Source of the DNA: a virus
Strand: one strand, 5' to 3'
Virus record (IMG/VR): IMGVR_UViG_3300045988_092366
Length of the DNA stretch: 64,000 bases
This document shows, piece by piece, positions 6,745 to 21,815 of the stretch. Made by a program: the position numbers and the translations under genes. Every line of letters begins with the position of its first letter. Positions within the stretch are counted from its first letter, which is position 1. A model generated the notes under the pieces. The model searched no databases and was not told the DNA's origin. It worked only from the letters and a program-made list of their open reading frames with translations.

Positions 6745-7857
6745 TTAAATTTTTATCCACAACTTACATCTTGAATCTGTTGGCTGAGTAGATGAAACTT
6801 GAACTGAATATTCAGTGTTTGCACTTCCAGCAGTAGTGGCATATTTAACTGATTGAGAACCAATATCAGCTGATGTAATACATTGACCGTAATATGAATC
6901 GTCTGAGTTGTATAGAGAAACATTGGGAGTGCCGTTTAAACCTTTAATGCAAAAGGCACCACCCTTATTATGGTCGCCAATAGCTGCATCATCGCCAACG
7001 ACATACCAAGTATTGTTTGCGAAATACGGTTCTAGCTTAGAAGGAAAATCACTGATTTGAGCTCTAGTATGCGTGTGACTGGCTGCGGCTGCACCAAGTT
7101 CAGATAAGGTAGGTTTATCGTCACTTGTATAAACTTTATACCAGCTATTCCAAGAAGAAGCAGATAAGTCTGAACCACGTAAAGCCAAACGTGGATGTCC
7201 TTCGCTTGCGTATCCAAAAGCAAGTTGATAACCATGACCGCCAGAAGTTTCACTCCAAGGAGCTAAAGATAAAACGCCACAAAAAGTTCCATTACATCCA
7301 ATAGGAGAATTAATTTTACTTGCAGTCTTAAAATCAACAGTCAATTTATTTTTATCGAATCCAGCGTCTTTTGGCGCAGGATTCTCATTTCTTGTATCTG
7401 CAACATCAACACCGTCAGTAGAACTAGATTTTGTAGCAGTATTTGCCACGTTAGCGCTGTTAGCGGTATTAGCTGTTTTAGCTGAATTAGCAGTATTGGC
7501 TGTGTTTGCGGAATCAGCTGTTGTAGCAGTATTAGCTGTATTTGCACTTCCTGCTGAATCAGCATATCCCGCAGACATTTTTTCCCACGTGCTAGAACCT
7601 AACGCTCTTTTATATAAATAAGAGACTGCTCCATCTGGAATAGCAATTTGAAATGGAGTGCCAATATCTGCATCGGTGAACACACTTGCCCATCGATTAA
7701 CGGGAGAAGACGCATTGCCACCAGTTGACGGCACTCCCCTAACAACATAATAACCAGTTTTGGTATGATTATCTAGATTCGTATCAGTTGTTACTGTTTC
7801 TGTCAACAGCGGTATTTTAGAAAATTCACTACCATCAGAAAGATAAAGTTCAGCCAT
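6745..7857 (-). CDS. Tail fibre paralog (370 aa): N-terminus MAELYLSDGSEFSKIP, C-terminus ...QPTDSRCKLWIKI, internal (S/T)ANTAN tandem repeats
   Basis: Conserved end modules shared with 20594..21145 and 21231..21746. SHTHT His motif. Confidence 0.5.
   Translation of the reverse strand: MAELYLSDGSEFSKIPLLTETVTTDTNLDNHTKTGYYVVRGVPSTGGNASSPVNRWASVFTDADIGTPFQIAIPDGAVSYLYKRALGSSTWEKMSAGYADSAGSANTANTATTADSANTANTANSAKTANTANSANVANTATKSSSTDGVDVADTRNENPAPKDAGFDKNKLTVDFKTASKINSPIGCNGTFCGVLSLAPWSETSGGHGYQLAFGYASEGHPRLALRGSDLSASSWNSWYKVYTSDDKPTLSELGAAAASHTHTRAQISDFPSKLEPYFANNTWYVVGDDAAIGDHNKGGAFCIKGLNGTPNVSLYNSDDSYYGQCITSADIGSQSVKYATTAGSANTEYSVQVSSTQPTDSRCKLWIKI
7435..7560 (-). repeat. Coding tandem repeat (gtattagcNgt)n giving ANTANTATTADSANTANTANSAKTANTANSANVANTA
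   Basis: Near-identical 9-18 nt units read directly. Confidence 0.5.
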
Positions 7858-7892
7858 TTAAATCAATCAAACTAGTTGACGTGGGCTTAAAG

Positions 7893-7901
7893 CCCCCCCC
7901 A
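7893..7901 (-). repeat. G9 homopolymer tract (C9 on plus), 36 nt upstream of the fibre gene start, inside mini-ORF MQTYTSWGGALSPRQLV
   Basis: Counted in the sequence. Flanked by the small palindrome gggctt-a-aagccc. Confidence 0.9.
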
Positions 7902-7936
7902 AGAAGTGTAAGTTTGCATAAAAATTCCTTTCAATC

Positions 7937-9133
7937 TTAAATTTTAATCCATATCTTACATGTATCGCTAGTAGGCTTTGTGCTAGATATGGTTATAATA
8001 TCGCTCGCTGCCTTGGCATTGAGCTTTGTGTTCATTTCACTTTCAGTATAGTAGCGGTCATCGTGAGAATGGCTAGAGTTGGCTTTACCGTTTAGTTTGG
8101 TATTAACTTCACTTTCAGTGTAATATCTATCATCGTGAGTGTGACTTGGAAGGTCAGCTGCCACAAGTTTTCTAAACGATGCTTTTCCGTTGGAACCACT
8201 TGGAGCAGCTAATATAGTATTAGCGGTTCTATCTGTTTGAGCACTATAAATATATGAACCCCAGTCACTAACATCTGTCATTTTGTGAGTGTGACCTGAT
8301 GGAGAAAACGTTGAAGGTTTACCACTAACATTACCCCATGAGACACTATTGGCAGAACCAGCACTGCTAGCATATGCAACTTTACCAATATCATAACCAG
8401 TAGCTTGTGCAGTGTATGCCCTTGTATCCATTGCAGCTCGGGGTTCATCGTTCATTAGCTGCCAAGAAGAGCCGTTACCACCACGAGTGCTGTTTGCTAA
8501 AATTCGGATATTACACGAATTATATGTACCAGTAGCATGAAAATATAAATCAGCATATCCAACAGTTGATTTAGCAGAATGTATTTTTAAAATAAATTGG
8601 TCTGGTTCATATCCATATCTACAAAGCCATTGAACAGTTCCATGAGTAGCCACAGCGCTTTCAGATACATTCTCATTGCGGAAACGGACTGCTAGAATGC
8701 CAAATCCACCATTTTCGTAACCAGAATCTACACACAATACAACGCTACCATCGAACCAATTTTGCGCTGATTCTATTTTCAAACAACGCCAATATGGTTT
8801 AGCAGCGCTAGATTGAGTAACATATCTTACAGTGCCATTTAGAGATTTTGTATAATTGGCAGTTCCAGAAATATTACATGTTACAACATTTCCTTCTGGA
8901 TTATATTTAAAATTATCATTATGGACTCTGTGAGTGTCATTGCCACTATCTGAAAACCAAATTGGCCTTAATGCATTTGCTGTCGCATTACCATAATTTT
9001 TTACAGCATTAGCAGCACCTCCTGCGGAATCTGCACCCGCATAATTATGGCTATGACTAGCAGCTGCTGCTCCCACCATGTCTGGAGTCCACTCTTTAAA
9101 AGACCCACCGCTAGGATAATATGCTTTAGCCAA
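7937..9133 (-). CDS. Tail fibre (398 aa), TTG start, HxH repeats 'SHTHDDRYYTESEVNTKLN', C-terminus ...KPTSDTCKIWIKI
   Basis: TTG start directly preceded by ATG-TAA. The repeat motif is shared with 9202..11337. Confidence 0.5.
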   Translation of the reverse strand: MAKAYYPSGGSFKEWTPDMVGAAAASHSHNYAGADSAGGAANAVKNYGNATANALRPIWFSDSGNDTHRVHNDNFKYNPEGNVVTCNISGTANYTKSLNGTVRYVTQSSAAKPYWRCLKIESAQNWFDGSVVLCVDSGYENGGFGILAVRFRNENVSESAVATHGTVQWLCRYGYEPDQFILKIHSAKSTVGYADLYFHATGTYNSCNIRILANSTRGGNGSSWQLMNDEPRAAMDTRAYTAQATGYDIGKVAYASSAGSANSVSWGNVSGKPSTFSPSGHTHKMTDVSDWGSYIYSAQTDRTANTILAAPSGSNGKASFRKLVAADLPSHTHDDRYYTESEVNTKLNGKANSSHSHDDRYYTESEMNTKLNAKAASDIITISSTKPTSDTCKIWIKI

Positions 9134-9141
9134 TTACATCG

Positions 9142-9151
9142 CCCCCCCCCC
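9142..9151 (-). repeat. G10 homopolymer tract, 9 nt upstream of the TTG start, inside mini-ORF MKNILTQRTFSEVCWGGGDVIG
   Basis: Counted in the sequence. Confidence 0.9.
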
Positions 9152-9201
9152 AGCAGACCTCACTAAAGGTGCGCTGTGTTAAAATATTCTTCATATTATC
9201 A

Positions 9202-11337
9202 CTATACCTTAATCCATAATTTACAAGTACTTGCGTTAGGCTGCGAAGAAGATACGATAACCTCTTCTGGTCGCCAAGTATTGGTGTTGGTATCTGTAAG
9301 AGCAATAGTCGCGTTACCAGACTGATTGAGCGTAAAACTGCCCTTATTCGTACCATTCTGTGTGATTGTAACAGTGCCATTACCAACAGAAGGAATTGAC
9401 GGTCTGCCAGAAATTTCAGACCAAGAATAGGAAGGTTTACTTGAAGCCTTAGCCCAAGCATAAACGTCACTAGCTGGCATAGAGGACGGTCTACCAGAAA
9501 CATTGCTCCATGCGACAGAACCAGCTGTGTTAGCATGACTTACAGATTGCGAACCGATAGTAGCAGAAGTGATAATTTCCTGCGAGCTGCCACCAGTAGG
9601 TAGATAAGTCGTATTGGTAGAATTCTTGCCAGCATTAAAATTAGTATCTGTATCGTAAGCGAATACTAGGCGTTCATCGCCTGCTAAGTTGCCGACAGTC
9701 CAAGCGCCCTTAGCTGTCTTTTGACCTACAACTGGATTGTATGACTGTGAATTGGCAGTAGAACCAAAAACGATAGCATTAATACGACCTTGAATCCAAC
9801 TGCCACCAGCACCACGAAGGATGCGGCCAGTCATTGTACCACCAGCAAGAGGTAGATAAGAGTGAGAGTGGCTTGCAGGAGCAGCACCTACATCACCAGC
9901 AGAAAGTGTGATATTAGCACTTAAAGCCTTACCATTGACTGTGCGGCTAGCTGGAACATATGAACTAAACTTATCGTTCAAGGCTTTACCCTGTGCCGCA
10001 GACAGTGATTGGTCGGTAGCAGTAGAAGTAAGATTATTCTGAACAGGACGCCAAGTATTTGTATCTGTAGAATGTACTGTAATATTACCACTTGCGTCAG
10101 ATGTTACAGAAGTAGCGCCAGTACCTTTAATAACCACACCACTACGGAAAGTATTATTATCTGTAACATTGATATAAGTGTTACCGTTTGTAGTAGCAGC
10201 ATTTGCAGTGCCACTTTTTGCGCCAGCTACGATATTGGTAGTATAATGAGTATTTGTATCTGTCTTTGGCGGGGTGTAGCCAAGAGCAGTAGTAACATTA
10301 GCGCTTGTAAGTTCGCCACGAATTGTCGCAGAAGACTTATTCTCTACACTACCAAGACCCAAATCGGCTTTTGTAGTCTTGTGCGGATTGCCAGTAGATG
10401 TGGAGTGGTTATATGCAGCACGAGATTCATCACCATAACCAGCAGTGGAATGAGTTGTACCGAGGGCAATAGTTTCAGAAATTACGACATATGTGCTACC
10501 GCTCCAACGATAGGTTTTGTTGTTGCTAAGGTCAACATAAATCTTACCAGCTTCGGCTTTGATTTCACCAGAATATGCGCCACTAGAGCTTTTTGTGGTA
10601 TAGAATTTGCCACCATTTAAATAACCTTCGATAACATCATCGACATAGCTTGGAAGATGCGCTGCATCAATTACACCGCTAATGCGCGAAGCAGGAAGAT
10701 TACCACTAACTTCACTAATAGTATAGCTAGGCTTGCTTGACTGCTTAGCCCATGAATAGACATCGCTCGCTGGCATACTAGTTGGGAAGTCTGTAATCTG
10801 AGCTTTTGTATGTGTGTGGCTTGAATTAGCTTTTGCATTCAGCTTTGTATTGATTTCGCTCTCAGTATAATACCTATCATCATGAGTATGGCCTGTATTA
10901 GACTTGCCGTCAAGTGCAGATTTAATGACCTTATTCTGTACAGGATTCATTGAAGTAGTAGAAAGTTCTGCATCAACAGTAACGTGATTTGAACCTGCGG
11001 CAACACCGTCAAGTTTAGCCTTGTCTGCGGCAGACATAAGACCTGCGGCACTGGCAGTAGCATTGCCGTATACAGTATTTGAATCTGTAACATTAAATGT
11101 GCTACCATCGCTACCTCTAAGAGTGATTGTACTACCGCTCTTGGTTAAGTTATAAGTTGTATTTGTATTGATATTATCTTTAATCTGAATCAGAGAGGAT
11201 GAAGAAATACCCATCCACAAAGTGCCGGTATCGGTGGCAACATACAATGCACCGTCCAATACTTTATTTTCGGCAGTGAGTGCTTTGATATTAGGTTCTT
11301 TATCTCTGATAAATTTTACTCTTGCTATCTTGCTCAC
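9202..11337 (-). CDS. Long tail fibre (711 aa) with internal repeats (SGRPSSMPASDVYAWAKxSSKPSY), C-terminus ...QPNASTCKLWIKV
   Basis: Repeat motifs and 'HTHDDRYYTESEINTKLNAKANSSHTH' are shared with 7937..9133. Confidence 0.55.
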   Translation of the reverse strand: MSKIARVKFIRDKEPNIKALTAENKVLDGALYVATDTGTLWMGISSSSLIQIKDNINTNTTYNLTKSGSTITLRGSDGSTFNVTDSNTVYGNATASAAGLMSAADKAKLDGVAAGSNHVTVDAELSTTSMNPVQNKVIKSALDGKSNTGHTHDDRYYTESEINTKLNAKANSSHTHTKAQITDFPTSMPASDVYSWAKQSSKPSYTISEVSGNLPASRISGVIDAAHLPSYVDDVIEGYLNGGKFYTTKSSSGAYSGEIKAEAGKIYVDLSNNKTYRWSGSTYVVISETIALGTTHSTAGYGDESRAAYNHSTSTGNPHKTTKADLGLGSVENKSSATIRGELTSANVTTALGYTPPKTDTNTHYTTNIVAGAKSGTANAATTNGNTYINVTDNNTFRSGVVIKGTGATSVTSDASGNITVHSTDTNTWRPVQNNLTSTATDQSLSAAQGKALNDKFSSYVPASRTVNGKALSANITLSAGDVGAAPASHSHSYLPLAGGTMTGRILRGAGGSWIQGRINAIVFGSTANSQSYNPVVGQKTAKGAWTVGNLAGDERLVFAYDTDTNFNAGKNSTNTTYLPTGGSSQEIITSATIGSQSVSHANTAGSVAWSNVSGRPSSMPASDVYAWAKASSKPSYSWSEISGRPSIPSVGNGTVTITQNGTNKGSFTLNQSGNATIALTDTNTNTWRPEEVIVSSSQPNASTCKLWIKV

Positions 11338-11352
11338 ATCCTTTCTGATATA

Positions 11353-12114
11353 TTATTTAATAGAAGACCAAGTTAAATCATCTGGCGTAGCAAAATCAGA
11401 AGCATCATGATATGCGGCAGATTTTAAACCATATACTGCCACAGATTTATCTTTAACTTTAATTGTACCATTTGCAGTGCCAGTAGTGATAGATGGAACT
11501 GTCAAAACATCAGATGGCAAAATGCCGCTTGCAACGGTATCGACATATGCTTTAGTGGCAATGTCATTATCGTCATTGATGACTTGACCAGCCGCGTATT
11601 TAATTTTACCAGATAAAGTACCACCAGTAAGAGGAAGATATTTCGCTTTCTCTTGGTCGGTATATGCCTTTGCATCTTTAAGGGCTTTATCTGCCTTTAC
11701 TTGTGCGTCTGTTGAAGACGCACCAGATGCAGTCTTAATTGCTGAATTCATCTCACTCTTGGTTGGATAGTTCGATAAGTCGGTCTTAGAGCCACCTAGC
11801 TTTTCAAACTTACCATTAACCCAAAAATATTCAGTATATTCATTGCTGGATTCAGTCAAATCTGGCAACATATAAATTGTATTTTCTTCGCCAGTAGAAG
11901 GAAGAGTTGACCCTTTTGCCAGCACAACACGTTTAAGATGCGGCGCACCTGCTACTGCATTTGCAATAGCCGTGTTCATAGCATCTTTTTTAACATATTC
12001 TGCTGGAACTTTATCACTCGGAATGTTAACATCCCAGTTAATATCAGAAGCATCTACGAGTTTGAAAGTGCCGTTATTCTTTTGTTTGATTTTATCAATA
12101 AGTTGAACAGGCAT
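11353..12114 (-). CDS. Fibre-like protein (253 aa) sharing a 'HLKRxxL...TIYM(L/V)PD' domain with 12957..14369 and 14812..16164
   Basis: Motif comparison by eye. Confidence 0.4.
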   Translation of the reverse strand: MPVQLIDKIKQKNNGTFKLVDASDINWDVNIPSDKVPAEYVKKDAMNTAIANAVAGAPHLKRVVLAKGSTLPSTGEENTIYMLPDLTESSNEYTEYFWVNGKFEKLGGSKTDLSNYPTKSEMNSAIKTASGASSTDAQVKADKALKDAKAYTDQEKAKYLPLTGGTLSGKIKYAAGQVINDDNDIATKAYVDTVASGILPSDVLTVPSITTGTANGTIKVKDKSVAVYGLKSAAYHDASDFATPDDLTWSSIK

Positions 12115-12932
12115 TATTTCACCTCCACCGTAGTTGCACCTAATCCTGCATTAGTTGACCTATAGATATTATAAGAAGCGGTATAGCCACTTGCATTTGT
12201 GAAATCAAAAGTCTTTACTTTGTTGAAGCCACCCTCGAAACCTCCAACATAAAATGCGGGAGTTCCAAAAGAAGCAGGAATAGCAAAATAAATATACTGC
12301 TCAGCATTAGCTGTGACGCTCCATGAACCCGTGCGACCAGACACTAAATTTCTAGTAAGCCCTTTGACAAACGCCGCATCTATCTTAGAAGTATCTGTTA
12401 TATTGCTCACGCCATAGTATTTACCATTTAAAAAGTAAATTGTAGTCTGCTTAGTAGATGTGGCTTTGCGAGCGTCAGTAGCAGTCAAAGTAAATGCGGT
12501 CGTTGCGGTAAGAGGTGCCGCAAATGTAATTGCCGCAGTTCCAGATTGCGTCTTGTTGATTTCAAATGATTGACCACCTGCTGTAATTGTCAGTTTAGAA
12601 GGTTGTTTATTCAAATTCCAAGAGAAGTTGGAAGATGGAAGACGAGAACCTATTTCAAGTGTGCCGCTATTGTTAGAAAAACTATTAACGGACATTGCTT
12701 TATAAATTGAAAGTGTGCCGTCAGAGGTAATATCAAAATCTCCGCTTGGCTTGATAATACCTGCGGCAGAGCCGGTGGCAATTTTAATATCGCCACAGCT
12801 GTATTTGATATTATTTTTCATGATACTCGTGGTATCTGAAAGAAAATAGATTCCGTTGGGGTCTATTTTGGTAGACCCCAACGCATCATACTCTGATTGC
12901 ACGCCTGTGTAAAATCTAATATCAGCAGACAT
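12114..12932 (-). CDS. Fibre/baseplate-associated protein (272 aa)
   Basis: Start overlaps the preceding stop. Confidence 0.3.
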   Translation of the reverse strand: MSADIRFYTGVQSEYDALGSTKIDPNGIYFLSDTTSIMKNNIKYSCGDIKIATGSAAGIIKPSGDFDITSDGTLSIYKAMSVNSFSNNSGTLEIGSRLPSSNFSWNLNKQPSKLTITAGGQSFEINKTQSGTAAITFAAPLTATTAFTLTATDARKATSTKQTTIYFLNGKYYGVSNITDTSKIDAAFVKGLTRNLVSGRTGSWSVTANAEQYIYFAIPASFGTPAFYVGGFEGGFNKVKTFDFTNASGYTASYNIYRSTNAGLGATTVEVK

Positions 12933-12956
12933 ACAATCTCCTTAATCTAATTTAAA

Positions 12957-14369
12957 TTAGAGTGTTTGCCATTCAATTAGGCCGTTAGCATATTCTTTAG
13001 CAGAAGCAAGAGCGTTATTGGCCTTAGTTGTAGCATCTGCGGCAGCAGCGTCAACGGCTTCGGTCTTTTTTGTGTCAGCATAGGTTTTAGCTTCAGTAAG
13101 AGCACCAGCAGCAGCACCAGAAGCATCAAAGGCACCGCTGTTTTGATAAGCAGCAGAGCCTAGACCCTTAACAGCAACGTCTGAACCCTTAACAGAGATT
13201 GTACCATTAGCAGTGCCAGAAACAACATCTGCGGCCTGAACAGCAGAGTCAGCTTTGGCGCCTTGGGCGGCAGTAGCATAATTCTTGGCTAGACCATCGG
13301 AATAAGCCTTGGCATCTTCAAGAGCCTTATCAGCTTTTTTACCAGCTTCGGTAATAGCAGCAGCTTGAGCAGCGTCAGCCTTTGTGGTGGCATCTGCTGC
13401 GGCGGTAGCAATGGCAGCAGCCTTAGCGGCATCTGCCTTAGTCTGAGCGTCAGTAGCAGCTTCACCCTTAGCGGTAGAGATAGCATCAGTTACTTGGTCT
13501 TTGGTGAAGTAGTTGCCAAGGTCTACGTCAGAAGTACCAATACGCTCAAAGGCACCATTGACAAGCATGTATTCAGTATAAACAGACTTGTTGGAGCCTG
13601 CGGTATCGGTGCTACCAGCATCGGGAACCATATAGATAGTATCTTCGTTGGCTTCGGAAACCTCGGGAAGAACGCTAACGATTTCACGCTTGAGGTGGTG
13701 CGCATTAGCTACGGCAGCAGCAATAGCGGTATTGGCTTCATCCTTTGTATAGGCATCGGCGATACCGTAACCAGCAAGGGTAGTAGCTTTGTCAGCTTTC
13801 TTGTCGATGTTGGCCTGTAGCTCGGTTTTAGCAGCGGTAACCTGTTTGGTGGTTTCAGCAGCAGCTGCTTCAATAGCTTCTGTCTTCTTAGTGGCAGAAT
13901 CAGCTTTGGCATCTTCTAGAGCTTTGTCGGCTTTAGAAGTGGCGTCTGTGGCAGCGGCGGCGATAGCAGCAGCCTGAGCATCAGCGGCAGCTTTCTTGAT
14001 AGAGCCTTCGCCCTCACCTTGAATAACCGTTAATTTTCCATCTGCGGCAGAAATATTATTTTCAGCAGTAGTAACACGCTGGGTAAGAGCAGAAAGGTCT
14101 GCGGCAACGGTTGTTGGCTTAACAACTGTAATATACTTGGTGCCGTCCCAATAGGCAACGTTGTCTCCATTATCACCTACAATATATAGGGTATTAATTT
14201 TACCCTGCGTAGGAAGTGCGCTTACTTTTTCGTAAATACCACCAGAGTATGGTGTATTACCTTTGTAAATGCGCTGCTCTTCTTCTACAAAATAAAGAGT
14301 ATTAGCGTCTTTATTTTCAAGGCCTTGGTAGCCAGCAAGAGTAGCAGCTACAAATTTAACTTGACTCAT
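12957..14369 (-). CDS. Tail fibre paralog A (470 aa), Ala-rich coiled-coil with AKAYTD/KADKATTLAGYGIADAYTK motifs
   Basis: Shares protein motifs and about 100 nt of DNA similarity with 14812..16164. Confidence 0.45.
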   Translation of the reverse strand: MSQVKFVAATLAGYQGLENKDANTLYFVEEEQRIYKGNTPYSGGIYEKVSALPTQGKINTLYIVGDNGDNVAYWDGTKYITVVKPTTVAADLSALTQRVTTAENNISAADGKLTVIQGEGEGSIKKAAADAQAAAIAAAATDATSKADKALEDAKADSATKKTEAIEAAAAETTKQVTAAKTELQANIDKKADKATTLAGYGIADAYTKDEANTAIAAAVANAHHLKREIVSVLPEVSEANEDTIYMVPDAGSTDTAGSNKSVYTEYMLVNGAFERIGTSDVDLGNYFTKDQVTDAISTAKGEAATDAQTKADAAKAAAIATAAADATTKADAAQAAAITEAGKKADKALEDAKAYSDGLAKNYATAAQGAKADSAVQAADVVSGTANGTISVKGSDVAVKGLGSAAYQNSGAFDASGAAAGALTEAKTYADTKKTEAVDAAAADATTKANNALASAKEYANGLIEWQTL

Positions 14370-14380
14370 TCACGTCTCCT

Positions 14381-14803: not shown

Positions 14804-14811
14804 TTTAACTC

Positions 14812-16164
14812 CTAAACTTCTACAATTGTTAAAGCGTTATCCGTGTAAGTTTTAGAAGTTTCAATGGCTTCTTTCTTTGCTGCTGCAATTGCTTCTGCAC
14901 TAGCAGTTCCACCGGAACCTACGCTTGTATCAATATACTGCTTAATAGTAGTACCTTCGGCAATGTCACCGACTTTTTCAGAAAGAATAGTCTTTACTTG
15001 AGCAGCATCGACTTTAGTATTTAAATTCTCTTGGATGGGAGAAATTTGACCATCGGTATATGCTTTAGCTTGTTCAAGTGTCGTAGCACCTTGCGTATCG
15101 GTATATGCTTTTGCATCTTCAAGAGCTTTAGCAGCGGCACCAGCTTTTTCATAATTAGCAGCAAGACCGTCGGCATATTCTTTTGCGCTTGTCAGAGTGG
15201 CAGTATCTTTTTCAACAGCAGCGGCAATGGCAGCAGCTTGAGCCGCATCGGCTTTTTTCTGCGCTTCTGCAATTGCAGCAGTTTGTGCGGTATCTGCCTT
15301 GGTCTGAGCGTCAGTAGCGGCAGCATCAATTGCAGCTTGCTTGGCGGTCGCAACTTCATCTTTAGTCGCGTAATCAGAAAGGTCTACCTTACTGTCACCG
15401 ATTTTTTCAAATTTCTTGACTTCACTAGCTACAACGAGAATGTATTCATCATAATGGTCATCAACTGGAACCATATAGATAGTATTAGCATCAGCTTCAT
15501 CGACAGCAGGGAGAGCATCGACAATAGCACGCTTTAAATGGTCTGCTTTCGCAATAGCAGAAGCGATTGCAGTATCAGTTGCTTCTTTTGTATAAGCATC
15601 AGCAATGCCGTATCCAGCCAAAGTAGTTGCTTTATCAGCCTTGTCAGCGACAGTAGTATCTGTATATGCCTTTGCATCTACAAGAGCTTTCTTTACAGAA
15701 CCTTCACCTTCACCAGTCAAGCTATCTAATTTAGCTTGAATAGCTTCAATGGTTGCTTTAAGATTCTCAACTTGTTCAAAAATTACCTTGAAACCAGAAC
15801 CAGTATAGATATATCCTTTGTTATCTGTAGTATTAATATAGATAACACCTTGTTCTTGGTCGGTTTCTGGAAGAGCTTCTACTACCTTAACATACTCTTT
15901 TACCTTGGTTGGGTCAATTTCACCATCAATTCCAATAGGAGAAAGATTAAAACCTGTACCCTCAGCTTTTGGTTGAAGCATATATGCTTTATACTTACCA
16001 TCAACCAATGCGGTAATGACTTGACCGCCATAAGCAATAGCTGAATCTGCATAGGTCTGTGCGGCTGCTAATGTCTCATGGACACTCGAAGCATCAAGTG
16101 GAAGAGCATTACCACGAGAATAGGCTTTTACAGCAACCAATAGTTTTGTGCTATCAATAGCCAT
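14812..16164 (-). CDS. Tail fibre paralog B (450 aa)
   Basis: Same motifs as 12957..14369. Confidence 0.45.
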   Translation of the reverse strand: MAIDSTKLLVAVKAYSRGNALPLDASSVHETLAAAQTYADSAIAYGGQVITALVDGKYKAYMLQPKAEGTGFNLSPIGIDGEIDPTKVKEYVKVVEALPETDQEQGVIYINTTDNKGYIYTGSGFKVIFEQVENLKATIEAIQAKLDSLTGEGEGSVKKALVDAKAYTDTTVADKADKATTLAGYGIADAYTKEATDTAIASAIAKADHLKRAIVDALPAVDEADANTIYMVPVDDHYDEYILVVASEVKKFEKIGDSKVDLSDYATKDEVATAKQAAIDAAATDAQTKADTAQTAAIAEAQKKADAAQAAAIAAAVEKDTATLTSAKEYADGLAANYEKAGAAAKALEDAKAYTDTQGATTLEQAKAYTDGQISPIQENLNTKVDAAQVKTILSEKVGDIAEGTTIKQYIDTSVGSGGTASAEAIAAAKKEAIETSKTYTDNALTIVEV

Positions 16165-16180
16165 AATTTATAACTCCTTT

Positions 16181-17185
16181 CTAAATGGTTACTGTAAATG
16201 TCATTGGAGCTGCGGCAGGAGCAGCCATAGCGTAGCTATAGACTTTATAGTTTGCAGCTGTTGCTCCGTTGGCACCTTCGACAGACACGGTCTGCTTGGC
16301 AAAGCTAGAAGCCATGCTAATATCATTTGTTTCTTCATATTTCACTTGGCTTACATCACGAAGAGCCGCAGGATAGGCGAAAACAATATATTGTTGCCCT
16401 TGAGCGACTTTAATGGTAAGTTTGGTACCAGCAGTAGGATTAAGAGACTTACCAGTAAGACCACGTACAATTGCAGAATTTAGCTCAGGTACAGAGCCTA
16501 CACCAGTGCCATAAAAGGCATTTCGCTTTCCAACATAAGAAAGTGCATTTGATGTAATAGAACCAGCAGTAATATGACCAGCTGGGGAATCATCTCCAAG
16601 ATTATCTTGCTTGATTGCACCCTCGGCATAAGAAGCAATAGCTTTAAAAGAAGTGGTACCTTCTCCAATAGTAATTGAATGGTCAGATAGAACTAGTGGG
16701 CTAGTAGTACCCTCAAGTACGTCTACAGTACCATCAGAAATTTTAATTGCGGTAAGAGCGCCAGCATCTTGCTTCGTAAAGTTTGCTGTCATTGTTGCTG
16801 CAAGGGTAGTACCAACTTCATAATTGCCCGGTTGAGCGCCTTTTGAAACCGCAAGAGAAATCTTAGGTGCAATATATGTAGCAGGTACACGTTTCATAAT
16901 AATCTTTTTAATTAATGCATCTAAATCAGTACCAGCTTCAATAACATCGCCAGTCTTGATACCGCCAACACTTCCACCAACGCCTAGTTGAACAGTGTGA
17001 GCCTGTTTAGATTTAGCGTTGCCAAGTGTATGCGGCACTTTAGAATCATCTACATAAATCATATTATCTTCTGTAGAAATAACGACACTATTTGTACCAA
17101 TAGTCCCAGCGGTAATACTATCATTTAGTTTTGTTTCAGAACCATGAAAAAAACTAATTTTTTTTGCATTTTCTGCATCAGCCAT
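16181..17185 (-). CDS. Fibre/baseplate protein (334 aa), Gly/Thr/Ala-rich
   Basis: ORF with AGG-type RBS. Confidence 0.35.
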   Translation of the reverse strand: MADAENAKKISFFHGSETKLNDSITAGTIGTNSVVISTEDNMIYVDDSKVPHTLGNAKSKQAHTVQLGVGGSVGGIKTGDVIEAGTDLDALIKKIIMKRVPATYIAPKISLAVSKGAQPGNYEVGTTLAATMTANFTKQDAGALTAIKISDGTVDVLEGTTSPLVLSDHSITIGEGTTSFKAIASYAEGAIKQDNLGDDSPAGHITAGSITSNALSYVGKRNAFYGTGVGSVPELNSAIVRGLTGKSLNPTAGTKLTIKVAQGQQYIVFAYPAALRDVSQVKYEETNDISMASSFAKQTVSVEGANGATAANYKVYSYAMAAPAAAPMTFTVTI

Positions 17186-17248
17186 ATGTTTGTAACCCCT
17201 CTCTATTGAGTATAAAAATTTTTATATATATAAAAATAAACCATATAG

Positions 17249-17857
17249 CTAAAATTCTCGAATCTTAACTTCTGCGCTGATAGCTATCTGGTCTAATTTA
17301 TTTTCTACTGAAACGGCTTTATCATATGCACTTGTTGCAATTTGTTTGATTTCTTTTGTTTCCTTTGTCCATTCTTGAAATTCTTTACGTTGTTCATTCA
17401 TTTGTTTTTCCATCTTGTCCCCAAGAGTAGCAAGATGGATTACAGCATTTTGAAAAGCGCTAAAATCATCAGAAACGACAAACGCAGAGCCGTCATTTGG
17501 GTCGGACAATACATGTACAAGAAAATTCGTGCTAGAAGCAATTGATACCGAATCAACTAATTCGACACAACAAAGCACGTCTCCTTCATGTAACATGGCT
17601 TGCGGCCATTTAATTTCCCATACGATAGGGTCTTCATGTGTTTTTGTAAAAACATTATATCCTTTTATATCTAGTTGAACATGCCGCCAACTCAAATAAA
17701 CTTTTGTATCTGCGACACATTGCGCAGCAGCTTCTTGGTCGAAAATAATTCTAAAAGTACGACCATTTGCATCTGCGCCGCCAGCCACAATAGGGTCTTG
17801 AATGTCTTGGTCAAGAGACTTTAAATTGACTGTAACTGCTTTTAATTCCTGACTCAT
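17249..17857 (-). CDS. Hypothetical protein (202 aa) with coiled-coil C-terminus
   Basis: Start overlaps the stop of the upstream gene. Confidence 0.3.
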   Translation of the reverse strand: MSQELKAVTVNLKSLDQDIQDPIVAGGADANGRTFRIIFDQEAAAQCVADTKVYLSWRHVQLDIKGYNVFTKTHEDPIVWEIKWPQAMLHEGDVLCCVELVDSVSIASSTNFLVHVLSDPNDGSAFVVSDDFSAFQNAVIHLATLGDKMEKQMNEQRKEFQEWTKETKEIKQIATSAYDKAVSVENKLDQIAISAEVKIREF

Positions 17858-18382
17858 TTATTCACCCCTTTCATTGTTCTTTTGGCTTACAATAAATTGT
17901 GGATTGGAAAGATTGATTCTCGGTAGTTCGCGTATCTCTTCCATTAAGCCATCAATGAATGAGTTGCCGCCTGCCGCTTTATAATATAAATATCTACGCT
18001 CTAGAGATTCTAGATTAAGGTCATCAATAGCCTTAATTTCATAGCAAAAATAGTGATGCTTGTCAATGATATAACTGCGGGAGTTCTCCTGCAATCTTTC
18101 AAGAGTAAGTTTTTCATGCTCTTGGAGTGCTTTAATATCATTCGATTGGTTGCTAATTTCTTGGCTAAGCCTTTTAATGTCTGCTTGCAACGAAGCAATA
18201 CTTTCTATAATCTCAGAGTGCTGTGTATCTTTAAGTGTCTGATAATTGAAGAATTTTTTTAATTTATTATAAAAATATTCCAATAGTTCACTTAAAAATT
18301 TAAAAGCAACAGCTAAAGTCACAACTAGCATAACGATAGCTCCGAAAGAGTATTGCGACACTAGTTGCGACAAAGCATCCAT
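17858..18382 (-). CDS. Membrane-anchored coiled-coil protein (about 175 aa, start at MDALSQ...). The ORF track over-extends it through a terminator.
   Basis: TM helix FGAIVMLVVTLAVAF followed by a long coiled-coil. Preceded by the terminator at 18462-18493 and an AT-rich promoter-like spacer. Confidence 0.35.
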   Translation of the reverse strand: MDALSQLVSQYSFGAIVMLVVTLAVAFKFLSELLEYFYNKLKKFFNYQTLKDTQHSEIIESIASLQADIKRLSQEISNQSNDIKALQEHEKLTLERLQENSRSYIIDKHHYFCYEIKAIDDLNLESLERRYLYYKAAGGNSFIDGLMEEIRELPRINLSNPQFIVSQKNNERGE

Positions 18383-18461
18383 TCTCGGCAATATCCCTTC
18401 TTCTCTACATAATCTAATATAATATGAAAATAATTTATATTTGATTTTAGGAATTTGCCCA

Positions 18462-18493
18462 TAAAAAAATGAGGGAAACATAAAGTTTCCCTC
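18462..18493 (-). terminator. Rho-independent terminator inside the tip-gene array
   Basis: gagggaaac-ataaa-gtttccctc followed by a T-run on the minus strand. Confidence 0.65.
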
Positions 18494-18505
18494 GAATAAA
18501 ATAAA

Positions 18506-18892
18506 TTAAGCGGTTCTATGCCACACATAGCAATTTTGATAAGCTGGTAAATTATTATGAGCTTTTCCGTCACCTTTTGATTCTACATATTTATCAATAA
18601 ACTTATTAGAATAATCCAAACCAGCCGCGCCAATTTGATAAGGCAAATTGGTAGCAATGTTATTACCAGCTTGCTTAGTTGATATGTGGTGAGTATGAGG
18701 TGGCATTTCACCAACGGTAAGTTTATGTGTGTCTTCCCCGCCGGTATTAGTATTTGTTGAAGCTCGTAGCACTTTATCAGTTATTTGTGTCCAAGTACCG
18801 CCAATACTGGATGCCGGTGAAGCGCTATGAAAAGAAATATATACAGAACCAACAGGGTAGACAATATCCATGAGGTTAACGTAATTAGACAT
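18506..18892 (-). CDS. Short tail-fibre tip/collar-like protein, paralog 4 (MSNYVNLMDIVYPVGSVY...HNNLPAYQNCYVWHRTA)
   Basis: Member of a four-gene tandem family. The second Met is the likely start. Confidence 0.5.
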   Translation of the reverse strand: MSNYVNLMDIVYPVGSVYISFHSASPASSIGGTWTQITDKVLRASTNTNTGGEDTHKLTVGEMPPHTHHISTKQAGNNIATNLPYQIGAAGLDYSNKFIDKYVESKGDGKAHNNLPAYQNCYVWHRTA

Positions 18893-18922
18893 ACGCAACC
18901 TCGCTTAGATTTAGATTGCTTG

Positions 18923-19378
18923 CTACGCTGTGCGATACCAAATAAAGCAAGTTGTGTAAGGTGGCAAGTTGTTGTGTGCTTGCCCCCCCCCATTAGAAGC
19001 AATAGTGTGGGTATGGTTACCAACCTCAGACGTATACTGTCCACCAAACCTACCAACAGAACCAAAATAATTACCAGCACCTTGAAGAACGTTACCTCCA
19101 CCTGGACCGTACCATGCGATAATTCGTTCATCAATACTGTGATTGTGTTTGCCAGCTTCTCCTGTAGAACCATTGTGGCTGTGAGCGGGCATTTCATTAA
19201 GGCTAAGCGTGTGCGTTGCTTCGCCGCCCGTATTCTTGGCGGTTGTAGACCCATAAAGAAAAGTGTTCAATCGTGTCCAAGTGCCACCAATAGAGCTAGC
19301 AGGAGATGTTGCATCCATGCTCTGATAGATTGAACCTACTGGATATATAATATCCATGAGGTTTACAAAATTACTCAT
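18923..19378 (-). CDS. Short tip/collar-like protein, paralog 3. Contains an in-frame G9 tract coding GGG 17 codons before the stop.
   Basis: MSNFVNLMDIIYPVGSIY...ASNGGGQAHNNLPPYTTCFIWYRTA. Confidence 0.5.
   Translation of the reverse strand: MSNFVNLMDIIYPVGSIYQSMDATSPASSIGGTWTRLNTFLYGSTTAKNTGGEATHTLSLNEMPAHSHNGSTGEAGKHNHSIDERIIAWYGPGGGNVLQGAGNYFGSVGRFGGQYTSEVGNHTHTIASNGGGQAHNNLPPYTTCFIWYRTA
18983..18991 (-). repeat. G9 homopolymer tract inside the CDS 18923..19378, about 90 nt upstream of the next paralog's start
   Basis: Counted. Encodes Gly-Gly-Gly. Confidence 0.9.
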
Positions 19379-19422
19379 TTATATCCTTTCTAATTGCATA
19401 GAAAGAATATTATAAAATCTTC

Positions 19423-19878
19423 TTAGGCTGTTCTTTTATATACTGCTAAAGAATAATGATATGGAATATGCTCTTGTTGTTCGGTAACAAAATGTCCGTT
19501 ATCATTAAGTTTCCAAGTACCTTTAGTCCACAAATTCCAACCAGTATCGCCACCATCTTTAGTACCGACTGACAATAATTGCCATAAACTACCAGCAGCA
19601 GCATTAGTATTCCAAAAACCAATACCTGAATATTGTTGCAGTTTACCATTCCAACCAACAACATTGTGCTGATGGTCTGGTATGGCTAGCGAAGAAATCA
19701 TATTGCTACCAGAAAAACGTCCAGCTACGTTATAGGTATCACCACTTGCCGCAAGCAAACAATTTTCTATTTTAGTCCAAGTTCCGCCAATACTACTCGC
19801 AGGAGAAGTACTAGAAGTACTAAAGTATATACTACCTACTGGATAAATAATATCAAGAAGATTTACAAAATTAGACAT
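19423..19878 (-). CDS. Short tip/collar-like protein, paralog 2
   Basis: MSNFVNLLDIIYPVGSIYFS... Confidence 0.5.
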   Translation of the reverse strand: MSNFVNLLDIIYPVGSIYFSTSSTSPASSIGGTWTKIENCLLAASGDTYNVAGRFSGSNMISSLAIPDHQHNVVGWNGKLQQYSGIGFWNTNAAAGSLWQLLSVGTKDGGDTGWNLWTKGTWKLNDNGHFVTEQQEHIPYHYSLAVYKRTA

Positions 19879-19931
19879 GGTAAATCACCATGCTTAGAAC
19901 AGCCATTGAAGAAGAAGCTACATTATTGTAG

Positions 19932-19941
19932 CCCCCCCCCC
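19932..19941 (-). repeat. G10 tract, 54 nt upstream of the start, inside mini-ORF MKNLMTNHGRWGGGYNNVASSSMAVLSMVIYHV whose stop overlaps the main ATG
   Basis: Counted. Confidence 0.9.
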
Positions 19942-20007
19942 AACGACCGTGATTAGTCATTAAGTTTTTCATAATATCCTTTCATTTAGGATATTAGATT
20001 TTAGATT

Positions 20008-20388
20008 TTAAGCAGTTCGTACCCAGACTCTACAAGCATATGAATAAGGATAATAATCAAGTCCTCTTCCCTCGGTACTAGTATATTTGGTAACGAATAT
20101 GCTACTGTCGTCAAGTCCACCGCCACCCCATTGGTACGGCCAATCATTATTAACGCCATTACCAGCATGTTTATTTGTGGCAGAATGTTTATGTGCTGGC
20201 ATTTGGTCAACTGTAATATGTTTGCTGCCCGTATAACCAGAAGTACTAGTATATGCGGCCAAGCAAGCGCCATCTTTAATCTGTGTCCAAGTGCCACCGA
20301 TAGACGTTGCAGGTGAAACAGTGCTAGTAGTAATATACATACTATTTATAGGATAAATAATATCTAAAAGATTTACAAAATTGCTCAT
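20008..20388 (-). CDS. Short tip/collar-like protein, paralog 1 (strong RBS AAGGAGG)
   Basis: MSNFVNLLDIIYPINSMY... Confidence 0.5.
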   Translation of the reverse strand: MSNFVNLLDIIYPINSMYITTSTVSPATSIGGTWTQIKDGACLAAYTSTSGYTGSKHITVDQMPAHKHSATNKHAGNGVNNDWPYQWGGGGLDDSSIFVTKYTSTEGRGLDYYPYSYACRVWVRTA

Positions 20389-20466
20389 TATTCAACCTCC
20401 TTATTTGGGAGGTCATCTAAAATCATAATATCAAATTGATTTATAGATTTTAAGCTACCGCAGTAG

Positions 20467-20475
20467 CCCCCCCCC
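20467..20475 (-). repeat. G9 tract followed by hairpin gctac-tgcg-gtagc, inside TTG mini-ORF (M)TSLGGGLLR
   Basis: Counted. The same G9+hairpin unit recurs at 21188. Confidence 0.9.
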
Positions 20476-20531
20476 TAGAGAGGTCAATTCATTAAATTTA
20501 TTCACATAAAACTCCTTTTCTTTCTTAGAAT

Positions 20532-20566
20532 TATATTCTATATCTATATGAAAAAAGGGCAAAACC
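20532..20566 (-). terminator. Rho-independent terminator after 20594..21145
   Basis: gggcaaaatcctgttacgggttttgccc followed by T6 on the minus strand. Confidence 0.65.
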
Positions 20567-20593
20567 CGTAACAGGATTTTGCCCAAAGTTATA

Positions 20594-21145
20594 TTAGATT
20601 TTAATCCACAATTTACATCTTGAATCCGTTGGTTGCGCAGATTGTACCATAACGCAATATTCATTATCAGCACTGCCAGCTTTTGTCGCATAGCTCGCCG
20701 AGCTTGCACTGCCAGCACTGGCCGCATATTTCACACTCTTGGATGAATCAGCCGTATTATCGACATTGCCCAATCCAACAGAAGATTTAGAAGGAGGATA
20801 AGCGTTTGTATAAAATTCCTCTACAGAGATAACAGAACCATTCGAGTAAGTCACTCTATAAGCCTTGCCCGGGCCAGTCATAGGAAATAACAATAAATTA
20901 CCATATTTATAATTATCTTCACCAACACCAGTCCTATGCGGCACATATAAATAATTATACCAAGAGCCACCAGTAAAGCTCAATCTTTTCTCTTTTGACT
21001 GATTGAACATACATGACCCTAGCGATGGAGGTCTATTCACTAATTTTACAATTAAATCATCTATTGTGTCCGCATTATTTTCTTGCGCTGTCATAGCTGG
21101 GATTACAGTAAAATTCTTCCCATTTGAAAAATAAAATTCGCTCAC
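20594..21145 (-). CDS. Tail fibre paralog (183 aa), GTG start, N-terminus MSEFYFSNGKNFTVIP, C-terminus ...QPTDSRCKLWIKI
   Basis: Conserved end modules. Confidence 0.5.
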   Translation of the reverse strand: MSEFYFSNGKNFTVIPAMTAQENNADTIDDLIVKLVNRPPSLGSCMFNQSKEKRLSFTGGSWYNYLYVPHRTGVGEDNYKYGNLLLFPMTGPGKAYRVTYSNGSVISVEEFYTNAYPPSKSSVGLGNVDNTADSSKSVKYAASAGSASSASYATKAGSADNEYCVMVQSAQPTDSRCKLWIKI

Positions 21146-21187
21146 TCCATATCATATAGAATGGTATCTATAGAGCTACCGCAGTAG

Positions 21188-21196
21188 CCCCCCCCC
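21188..21196 (-). repeat. G9 tract plus gctactgcggtagc hairpin, inside mini-ORF MFINLLWDGGGLLR (with an AAAGGAG RBS)
   Basis: Counted. Confidence 0.9.
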
Positions 21197-21230
21197 ATCC
21201 CATAAAAGATTAATAAACATATTTTCTCCT

Positions 21231-21746
21231 TTAAATCTTTATCCATAATTTACAAGTAGAAGATGTAGGCTGAGAAGATGATACGGTGACAATATCATTG
21301 GCCGCATACTGAGAATGCGTATGCGATGCTTGTGCAAACATATTTTTATTGATTGTTTTTAATGTATTACCATCATACGCAGCTATCCAAGTGAAGCCAG
21401 AATAGGGCAAGTCCTTAGCGCTATAAGAAACTTTTAAATCACGCCCATCGCCAGAGTCTTTGATTAAACCAGCTTCATTAGCATATTTTACTAATTTATC
21501 CGCATCGGCTGTGTTATCAACAGCATTAAGACCTAACCACTTTTTATATTCTGTCTTAGATACGTCTTTAATTTTCTTATCATTGCTTAGTCCAAGAGCA
21601 TAAGTAAAATCTGCGGCAGTAAAACTAGACCCAGACCATCCTAGCTTGATTACATTATTCGGATTATTGTAATCTCGCACGCCGTCAGCTTTAGAAGGGA
21701 CAAATTCAGAAAAATTCGTCCCATCGCTTACCATAAAATCAGCCAC
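21231..21746 (-). CDS. Tail fibre paralog (171 aa), GTG start, N-terminus MADFMVSDGTNFSEFVP, C-terminus ...QPTSSTCKLWIKI
   Basis: Conserved end modules. ASHTHS His motif. Confidence 0.5.
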   Translation of the reverse strand: MADFMVSDGTNFSEFVPSKADGVRDYNNPNNVIKLGWSGSSFTAADFTYALGLSNDKKIKDVSKTEYKKWLGLNAVDNTADADKLVKYANEAGLIKDSGDGRDLKVSYSAKDLPYSGFTWIAAYDGNTLKTINKNMFAQASHTHSQYAANDIVTVSSSQPTSSTCKLWIKI

Positions 21747-21779
21747 ACCTATCAGCTAAGCTATTTAGCGGGGCAGATG

Positions 21780-21788
21780 CCCCCCCCC
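21780..21788 (-). repeat. G9 tract inside mini-ORF MNNTFLGGGICPAK, preceded by an ATG-TAG start-stop
   Basis: Counted. Confidence 0.9.
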
Positions 21789-21815
21789 AGAAATGTGTTA
21801 TTCATATCTACATCC

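Follow-up and report, generated by a model that had tools for sequence, protein, structure and literature searches.

The tail-fibre locus of an uncultured human-gut phage of about 140 kb, analysed in a 64,000-nucleotide (nt) window of IMG/VR record IMGVR_UViG_3300045988_092366, contains seven long poly-G tracts, six of which lie in short leader open reading frames (ORFs) between the fibre genes. Judged from the sequence, these tracts are on balance probably hypermutable contingency tracts, which would gate the fibre modules gene by gene through translational coupling and would also act as joints for the exchange of cassettes. The coordinates of the features are collected in table 1, and L-numbers denote loci of related contigs.

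The tracts appear as C-runs of 8–10 nt on the plus strand, i.e. G-runs on the coding minus strand, and all of them fall inside the tail-fibre locus of 14 kb. Elsewhere in the window, whose GC content is 38.7%, G and C runs stay below 7 nt. The original prediction had counted seven tracts of G9 or G10; the number was correct, but the tract at 7893 is 8 nt long. From the composition alone, 0.23 runs of at least 8 nt and 0.05 runs of at least 9 nt would be expected, and dinucleotide-preserving shuffles contained a mean of 0.12 matches to C8, compared to 15 overlapping matches (in the seven tracts) observed. A chance origin was rejected on the basis of these expectations, in agreement with what had been claimed at the outset.

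One tract (18983) lies in frame within collar gene F, the upstream paralog, as originally described, and is read there as Gly-Gly-Gly (...SN-GGG-QAHNNLPPY...). The distance from the end of a tract to the next start codon was 8–84 nt, close to the 9–90 nt given previously. Of the genes upstream of the tracts, only B and C end exactly in CKLWIKI, the C-terminus attributed earlier to the genes before six of the tracts; A, P and Q have close variants of it, and D ends in CRVWVRTA (table 1). Two structural details reported before were both found: the tracts at 21188 and 20467 have in common an identical 22-nt unit consisting of G9 and CTACTGCGGTAGC, and the tract at 7893 carries a GGGCTT-T-AAGCCC palindrome. 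The sequence GGGGGGGGG encodes only one of the 23 Gly-Gly-Gly tripeptides in the window, namely that of the gene F tract. Since GGG is the rarest Gly codon (4% of the 1,353 Gly codons in the window), GGGGGGGGG and the G-runs are selected and kept at the nucleotide level.

The six intergenic tracts have a common layout, in which the stop codon of the upstream fibre gene is followed by a Shine-Dalgarno (SD) sequence, a start codon (ATG or GTG), 5–14 leader codons, the G-run, a hairpin, a spacer and the next fibre gene. Every one of these leader ORFs has its own SD (score 4–6). The hairpins are 5–8 bp in length, begin 0–1 nt after the run, and include the last G residues of the run in their stem. 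At the P>Q junction of the window (9126–9151) the hairpin, CATCAgtagccaaTGATG, has been lost through a deletion of 14 nt that none of the relatives (L001–L005, L011) shows. The deletion also leaves 8 nt between the G10 run and the TTG start of gene Q downstream, a position in which the run could itself act in an SD-like manner.

In all nine sequence-distinct junction types, exactly one reading frame places the stop codon of the leader at position −2, +1 or +5 of the downstream start, so that stop and start overlap, as in termination-reinitiation, in one frame at every junction. The forms observed were GTG/ATG/TTG-GCT-GA or -AA (+5), ATG-TCT-AA (+5), GTGA (+1) and TAATG (−2). The remaining two leader frames end 8–69 nt upstream of the start, usually within the hairpin. 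When each spacer was shuffled, the joint probability of an open coupled frame in seven junction types was about 5e-4. In the present genome, the tracts at 19932 and 9142 (both G10) are in the coupled frame, and those at 21780, 21188 and 20467 (G9) and 7893 (G8) are uncoupled. With G8 or G11, the leader to gene D would gain 25 codons and end on TAATG (−2), and with G10 or G7 the Q>R leader ends on ATG-GCT-GA (+5), as found in L003, L004 and L005. A simple fusion of leader and fibre protein by a ±1 shift was rejected, since stop codons lie between tract and fibre start in all three frames at every junction; the mechanism proposed here is coupling through the leader ORF.

None of the tip genes carries its own ribosome-binding site. 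Across the window and its relatives, 37 distinct tip-gene starts were counted; all are without an SD, and 27 of them are GTG or TTG. An SD was present in 21 of 23 collar genes that have no upstream G element, and in 31 of the 43 other genes of the window. For collar genes D and E the initiation signals are predicted to be hidden by conserved RNA structure: the start codon of E is enclosed in a hairpin, and the SD of D, a perfect AAGGAGG, is paired with ACCUCC or with CCUCUCU of the leader (in the consensus fold, the SD pairs with CCUCUCU, and ACCUCCC with the poly-G). A downstream cistron lacking an accessible ribosome-binding site, which is typical of termination-reinitiation, was thus observed at the 37 tip starts and is predicted at D and E. 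Compensatory changes at junctions D and E comprise four base pairs; in one of them, in L034, the gene E start has changed from ATG to TTG and the other arm of the hairpin has changed with it. An Rfam search of the junctions revealed no known RNA family. Each of the 60 distinct collar-gene starts shares bases with a stop codon in another frame, and TAATG was used in all 14 of those in which codon 2 lacks a final T, i.e. where no TAA is possible at +5. The SD-preceded leaders, the single coupled frame and the SD-less tip genes support the earlier suggestion that a ±1 change in a tract would re-phase the short leader ORF.

No close match to the locus was found among 50,697 phage records, either by megablast with the 14 kb locus or by tblastn with a neighbouring protein of 764 amino acids (aa). 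Relatives were present in IMG/VR (about 24 contigs, 93–147 kb, about 39–40% GC), and a pattern scan added 18 contigs from independent metagenomes of the human gut, many of which had been assembled with SPAdes (Illumina). Tracts of G7–G11 (mode 9, and one G20) were present at orthologous junctions in about 40 related contigs, always with G in the mRNA sense and never C. In the 18 metagenome contigs, the locus contained 5 runs of G7, 5 of G8, 23 of G9, 13 of G10 and 5 of G11, and no C-run. At the tract 3 site (junction D), the same contigs had G9 eight times, G5 three times, and G6, G8, G10 and G11 once each; the other three were interrupted. The G20 run lies at an A>B-type junction (L032:2936), with its leader in the coupled frame.

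The length of orthologous tracts varied inside near-identical flanks. In alignments of at least 99% identity (118 kb, 83 mismatches), the sole indel was G10 versus G11, between L024 and L025, and coding A7, A8 and T7 runs, taken as a control, kept their length in 23–25 relatives. At a threshold of at least 95% identity, the pairwise indel census was dominated by indels in diverged cassettes and hence carried no information on the tracts. Tracts within collar genes were out of frame in L032:6303, L033:6325, L033:5416 and L035:5411. Interrupted or shortened alleles were also detected at homologous sites (G4TG4, G5TG4, G5, GGTGAGGG and others); interrupted, or 'locked', alleles are usual at contingency loci. 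An error of assembly or of homopolymer calling was rejected, as the tracts recur in independent Illumina/SPAdes gut metagenome assemblies and the coding A/T runs are stable. The original prediction would have failed if relatives lacked the tracts, if tract length were invariant or if the tracts were artefacts, and on each of these points the comparison between genomes spoke in its favour.

A switch of this kind would operate as follows. Slippage during replication would alter the G-count and set the reading frame of the leader, which would be translated from its own SD. In the coupled frame, ribosomes would cross the spacer and unfold the hairpins that mask the SD or start on the way; after termination on the start codon they would re-initiate, turning the fibre module ON. 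In the other two frames the leader would end in or just past the small hairpin, 8–69 nt upstream, and the module would be OFF or low, because few ribosomes would reach a gene without its own ribosome-binding site. Tract 5 would follow the classical route, in that collar protein F would lose its conserved last 19 residues after a ±1 change. If slippage is frequent and reversible, and if the coupled frame corresponds to expression, one genome could yield many host-range variants.

Several observations weigh against this interpretation. Every length difference observed is a difference between consensus genomes. The coupled frame was found in 19 of 54 intact tracts, and in 6 of 18 at junction D, about one third, a share also to be expected if the frame were irrelevant. 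Locked alleles were not significantly enriched in the coupled frame (4 ON and 4 OFF by automatic count, Fisher p = 0.45). Two non-coding T7 runs (18463–18469 and 1060–1066) varied from 7 to 9 nt among relatives, showing that variability in length is not unique to the G tracts and that intergenic A/T homopolymers are polymorphic too; the run at 18463–18469 forms the tail of a terminator-like hairpin (18471–18493). At the tip junctions the OFF-frame stops are only 8–33 nt upstream, and re-initiation could leak. Moreover, gene D has a strong SD, though a sequestered one, and the compensatory pairs derive mostly from a single lineage, L034.

The arrangement of the cassettes bears on a second possible function. 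Across genomes, gene A is 94–97% identical and genes H, I and J are 97–99% identical, and between them lie 2–7 cassettes of differing type (18500–21800 in the window, about 2000–7000 in L012–L035). Hybrid junctions were found in which the breakpoint is exactly at the tract. An A-type leader was joined to a C-type spacer in L012:4685 and L035:3758 and to a D-type spacer in L017:5929, and a D-type leader was joined to an E-type spacer in L020:5489. These breakpoints show that the tracts also mark joints for module exchange. It could be argued that the tracts are mainly such joints, with poly-G and hairpin serving as short identical border sequences for the deletion, duplication and swapping of cassettes, and with any effect on expression being secondary. 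The hybrid breakpoints, the variable cassettes between conserved gene A and H/I/J and the 22-nt unit of tracts 2 and 3 are consistent with this reading, which is compatible with a contingency switch. As the main explanation it is nevertheless unlikely, because it does not account for the SD-preceded leaders, the single coupled frame, the SD-less tip genes and the intragenic tracts. In addition, the homology available is only 9–22 nt, and other rearrangements of the locus use repeated protein-linker motifs, not poly-G.

The remaining alternatives concern what a G-run would do in the transcript, or whether it does anything. Programmed, non-heritable slippage (by +1/−1 movement of the ribosome on three rare GGG codons, or by stuttering of RNA polymerase) might set the stoichiometry of the tip proteins, and the modal length, G9 (23 of 51 tracts), is one nt off the coupled frame at four junction types. 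GGG being the least used Gly codon, such a run should be decoded slowly, and it allows perfect re-pairing of the P-site tRNA; furthermore, a hairpin directly follows each tract, except at P>Q in the window. This was judged quite unlikely, since the lengths seen in near-identical genomes, G7–G11 and G20, cover all three frames, interrupted, non-slipping alleles persist, and a hairpin of 5–8 bp located 0–1 nt past the run has an unusual spacing for a frameshift stimulator. Neither the stimulator spacing nor the conservation of tract length known from programmed ribosomal frameshifts was found. G:C-rich runs are also poorer substrates for RNA polymerase slippage than A/U runs. Another possibility is an RNA-structure rheostat, in which the G-run pairs with a C/U-rich partner, either in cis (CUUCUUCUU or ACCUCCC) or as a small RNA (sRNA) in trans, like RepG of Helicobacter pylori; the length of the run would then adjust the accessibility of the downstream SD or start codon by degrees, and the frame would be irrelevant. 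In the consensus folds, the partner of poly-G is indeed CUUCUUCUU at junction E and ACCUCCC at junction D. A rheostat is very unlikely, as a long C/U-rich partner is missing at the tip junctions A>B, Q>R and P>Q, where there is only a 4–5 bp hairpin, and as it leaves unexplained the SD and start codon of the leaders, the stop-on-start geometry and the intragenic tract. It is barely credible that the tracts, or their differences in length, stem from errors of sequencing or assembly, or that they are remnants, without function, of a single duplicated junction. Homopolymers are prone to sequencing error, the frame states look random (about one third coupled), and the junctions are paralogous, so that the seven tracts are not independent. 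Against this, the tracts recur in some 40 contigs from both IMG/VR and independent SPAdes (Illumina) assemblies, coding A/T runs of 7–8 nt are stable in the same genomes, and the G-run was kept while the leader sequences diverged and while GGG was strongly avoided elsewhere in the window. Heritable switching through the leader ORFs, combined with module exchange, remains the preferred explanation.

Table 1. Poly-G tracts, leader ORFs, RNA structures and genes of the tail-fibre locus (positions in the 64,000-nt window; RNA structures are predictions).
Feature	Position (strand)	Size or sequence	Remarks
Tract 1	21780..21788 (-)	G9	Junction fibre gene A > tip gene B; orthologues in relatives G9 (x7), G10, G11, G20
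Tract 2	21188..21196 (-)	G9	Junction B > C
Tract 3	20467..20475 (-)	G9	5' of collar gene D
Tract 4	19932..19941 (-)	G10	Junction D > E; relatives G8, G9, G10 and interrupted forms
Tract 5	18983..18991 (-)	G9	In frame in gene F as Gly-Gly-Gly ahead of conserved C-terminal QAHNNLPPYTTCFIWYRTA
Tract 6	9142..9151 (-)	G10	Junction P > Q; relatives G8, G9, G10
Tract 7	7893..7900 (-)	G8	Junction Q > R; relatives G8, G9, G10
Leader A>B	21761..21805 (-)	MNNTFLGGGICPAK-stop	SD AAGGA; at G9 stops 17 nt before GTG of B; G8/G11 would give GTG-GCT-GA (+5)
Leader B>C	21176..21220 (-)	MFINLLWDGGGLLR-stop	SD AAAGGAG; at G9 stops 33 nt before C; G8/G11 would give GTGA (+1)
Leader to D	20455..20505 (-)	VNKFNELTSLGGGLLR-stop	GTG start, SD AAAGGAG; at G9 stops 69 nt before ATG of D
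Leader D>E	19871..19972 (-)	33 codons, MKNLMTNHGRWGGGYNN...VIYHV-stop	At G10 ends on ATG-TCT-AA of E (+5), coupled
Leader P>Q	9126..9194 (-)	MKNILTQRTFSEVCWGGGDVIG-stop	Ends on TTG-GCT-AA of Q (+5), coupled
Leader Q>R	7887..7919 (-)	MQTYTSWGGL-stop	At G8 stops 32 nt before ATG of R
Hairpin A>B	21770..21783 (-)	GGGGC-AUCU-GCCCC	Uses final tract G residues
Hairpin B>C	21172..21191 (-)	GGGGCUAC-UGCG-GUAGCUCU	Leader UAG stop in 3' arm
SD-sequestering pairing	20395..20413 (-)	ACCUCC...GGAGGU	Predicted to mask SD of gene D
Long hairpin D>E	19899..19950 (-)	about 24 bp	Poly-G pairs with CUUCUUCUU around GCUAC...GUAGC core; two compensatory pairs in lower stem
Hairpin at gene E start	19875..19893 (-)	GCAUGGUG-AUU-UACCAUGU	Encloses start codon of gene E
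Hairpin Q>R	7883..7895 (-)	GGGCU-UUA-AGCCC	Holds UAA stop of G8 leader
Terminator-like hairpin and T-run	20557..20584 (-)		Intrinsic type, 3' of gene C; promoter-like TTGCCC-16-TAGAAT next
Fibre gene A	21816..23375 (-)	519 aa	Phage_fiber_2; conserved 5' anchor of variable cassette array; ends VKIWVQI
Tip gene B	21231..21746 (-)	171 aa	GTG start, no SD; begins VADFMVSDGTNF, ends CKLWIKI
Tip gene C	20594..21145 (-)	183 aa	GTG start, no SD; ends CKLWIKI
Collar-domain gene D	20008..20388 (-)	126 aa	Gp10_C; ATG start; ends CRVWVRTA
Collar-domain gene E	19423..19878 (-)	151 aa	No SD
Collar-domain gene F	18923..19378 (-)	151 aa	Gp10_C, E = 2.6e-20
Fibre gene P	9202..11337 (-)	711 aa	Phage_fiber_rpt/PTR; proximal partner of P-Q-R series; ends CKLWIKV
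Tip gene Q	7937..9133 (-)	398 aa	TTG start, no SD; ends CKIWIKI
Tip gene R	6745..7857 (-)	370 aa	ATG start, no SD; ends CKLWIKI

The junctions also raise the question of how the proteins on either side fit together. The C-termini of fibre proteins (...QPxxSxCKLWIKI, then stop) and the N-termini of the proteins encoded next (xxEFYxSDGxxF), at junctions A|B (21746–21816), B|C (21145–21231) and Q|R (7857–7937), resemble, when joined, an unbroken PETDQEQGVIYINTTDNKGYIYTGSGF at about residue 99 of fibre protein K (gene 14812–16164). None of 1,332 control pairs of C- and N-termini matched the PETDQEQGVIYINTTDNKGYIYTGSGF-like motif, for which the regular expression was designed after the data had been seen. 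In a search for a natural unbroken version with the fused Q|R sequence as query, no match covered more than 52% of the query. It is conceivable, if rather unlikely, that the locus encodes a combinatorial, self-assembling split tail fibre, with a universal 'socket' at the C-terminus of every shaft or tip, a universal 'plug' at the N-terminus of every tip, and stochastic switching of the leader frames that would select the plugs to be made. Each leader switch may then sit in the turn of a beta-hairpin-like motif split between two genes. Six switches could give up to 64 fibre configurations per genome, and the poly-G joints would allow the exchange of cassettes between phages.

All genes of the locus are encoded on the minus strand and were annotated as genes for tail fibres or collar domains (Phage_fiber_2, Phage_fiber_rpt, Gp10_C and PHROG tail-fibre matches). 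Collar genes D, E, F and G are small Gp10_C domains with E-values as low as 2.6e-20. For tip genes B, C, Q and R, the family matches were weak or absent. A sequence search of PDB chains with tip protein R and collar protein F gave no matches. Gene R contains tandem repeats of 9, 27 and 45 nt (7434–7563), which encode SANTANTA... In relatives (proteins P0001, P0012, P0016), variants of R with in-frame deletions occur, for example one of 129 aa in which the N-terminal domain directly adjoins ...SANTEYSVQVSSTQPTDSRCKLWIKI, and in some relatives the N-terminal domain of R is fused to the C-terminus of a BclA_C-like gene (4929–5336). Short R-like proteins had been considered as signs of additional frameshift sites, an idea that was rejected because they are in-frame deletions or fusions.

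Other genes in and near the locus were also noted. The gene at 4929–5336 on the minus strand matches the BclA C-terminal domain below the threshold (31.4 bits; the curated cutoff is 38). It adjoins the fibre locus, as does a gene for a Hoc-like decoration protein (3558–4544, minus strand). At the start of the window, an auxiliary FolD-like gene (11–559, plus strand) encodes a tetrahydrofolate (THF) dehydrogenase/cyclohydrolase NAD(P)-binding domain (E = 1e-37). A gene resembling HNH or homing endonucleases (50613–51524; PHROG 374/559, E = 4.6e-38) lies amid structural genes.

Among the matches listed for the portal protein (15 of 67), the nearest was that of Phass-1 (40%), and those of Enterococcus or Bacillus phages were at about 30%. 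Phass-1 (OQ749652.1; L053–L055), the nearest cultured relative, has no G or C run of at least 7 nt, indicating that the feature belongs to the clade of the phage described here. Phass-1 has been classed in a TAG-recoded 'code 15' clade and has three suppressor tRNA-CTA genes. Stop-codon recoding was rejected for the present phage, since code 11 leaves the ORFs intact, TAG serves as the stop of 14 genes, and orthologous stops alternate between TAG and TAA; the 49 gene stops in the window were TAA (33), TAG (14) and TGA (2). The window shows strong SD usage and encodes an Amidase_2 endolysin. The portal relatives include phages of Enterococcus, Bacillus and Clostridioides (among the matches listed), and the single match in the endolysin search (63% identity) was on a contig binned to a Clostridiales metagenome-assembled genome. 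Taken together, these sequence features make a host from the Bacillota plausible. A Gram-positive host, as had been assumed, is likewise plausible but unproven.

A G-run was also seen in a group of unrelated phage contigs (L037, L038, L040, L045; 25–38 kb, 53% GC). At about position 7302 these carry a G8 (GAG GGG GGG GCA) in a collar-domain gene, at the GG motif before THTLTVEEMP, where the relative L046 has GGTGGT. This G8 may be an independent contingency tract.

Host range is usually seen as fixed by the phage genome or altered by rare mutation. If the proposed mechanism holds, a widespread clade of human-gut phages would generate host-range variants in advance, in each burst, through six or seven independent switches. 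To our knowledge, viral phase variation has so far been documented only for Campylobacter phages, and it would then become a general viral strategy. The regulatory device itself is possibly new, in that the repeat would lie outside the structural protein, in a throw-away leader ORF, with the ON state brought about by termination-reinitiation. Such switches would bear on the prediction of phage-host links in gut metagenomes, where consensus genomes would hide sub-populations. They would also be relevant to the choice and engineering of therapeutic phages, and would offer a compact three-phase switch for synthetic biology.

Different phages diversify their receptor-binding tips in different ways. 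The G-segment of Mu and the C-segment of P1 are inverted by a site-specific invertase, and Bordetella phage BPP-1 uses a diversity-generating retroelement with mutagenesis by reverse transcriptase. The outcome proposed here is similar, namely that one genome gives rise to virions with alternative tips. The fibre locus showed neither an invertase nor a retroelement, and its cassettes all point the same way.

The array is close in its logic to the simple sequence repeat (SSR) contingency loci of bacteria, such as the poly-G/C tracts in surface genes of Campylobacter jejuni, Neisseria and Haemophilus. Homopolymers above the slippage threshold (about 7–8 or more G/C), a ±1 logic, length polymorphism between close relatives, locked alleles and a mode near G9 are common to both, and as far as sequence can indicate, the tracts have the slippage-prone length, the placement altering the frame logic of a gene and the between-genome polymorphism of such a locus. 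Bacterial SSR tracts are usually located inside an ORF or in a promoter spacer, whereas the tracts described here are found in a virus and in a dedicated leader ORF. A literature search brought up no account of termination-reinitiation being gated by a dedicated leader ORF that holds a phase-variable repeat.

A G-repeat in an mRNA leader is known from tlpB-hp0102 of Helicobacter pylori, where it is untranslated, is bound by the trans-acting sRNA RepG and exerts graded control (PMC8295292). The two systems are alike in having a G-repeat of variable length within the leader that pairs, or in the phage is predicted to pair at junctions D and E, with a C/U-rich sequence and acts, or would act, post-transcriptionally. 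In the phage, however, the run would be translated as Gly codons of the leader ORF, and the control proposed is a three-phase coupling of frames. Cis-acting C/U-rich partners are predicted at junctions D and E and not at the tip junctions; no trans-acting sRNA partner was identified, although no search aimed at one was made.

Contingency loci have been described in phages T2 and T4, where A-runs of about 6–9 nt lie within agt, rIIA and other ORFs (Gomez, Barrick and Waters 2025, bioRxiv 10.1101/2025.10.21.683753). They have in common with the present array that homopolymers of a phage genome could bring about reversible frameshifts and bet-hedging. In the same study, homopolymer repeats were under-represented in tail-fibre genes, in contrast to the present phage, where they are concentrated in the fibre locus and organised as an array.

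The closest parallel is found in the Fletchervirus phages of Campylobacter, whose genes for receptor-binding proteins contain hypermutable poly-G tracts (Sorensen et al. 2021, Cell Rep 35:109214, as summarised in PMC10877375 and bioRxiv 10.1101/2025.10.21.683753). The original prediction had known of no such organised poly-G switch array in the fibre locus of a Gram-positive phage, a claim of novelty that overlooked these tracts. According to the same summaries, each Fletchervirus genome has several G7–G11 tracts, concentrated in host-recognition genes and in the same length range as those of the present clade, and sub-populations differing in receptor use are thought to arise, much as envisaged here. 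The tracts of Fletchervirus, as described there, lie inside the receptor-binding-protein genes and cause frameshifts, whereas six of the seven tracts in the present locus lie outside the fibre ORFs, in leaders, and only that at 18983 (gene F) lies within such an ORF. The present phage is also unrelated (about 140 kb, from the gut, 39% GC), and its tracts occur at cassette borders as well. No Fletchervirus match was obtained in the 50,697 records, and no Campylobacter phage was among the portal matches listed (15 of 67) or the organism names summarised. The lack of homology, together with the location of six of seven tracts outside fibre ORFs, indicates that the array is not a member of the Fletchervirus system. 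Switching of receptor-binding proteins by poly-G was thus already known in phages, and what seems new in the present locus is the placement of the tracts in leader ORFs, with the translational coupling proposed for them.

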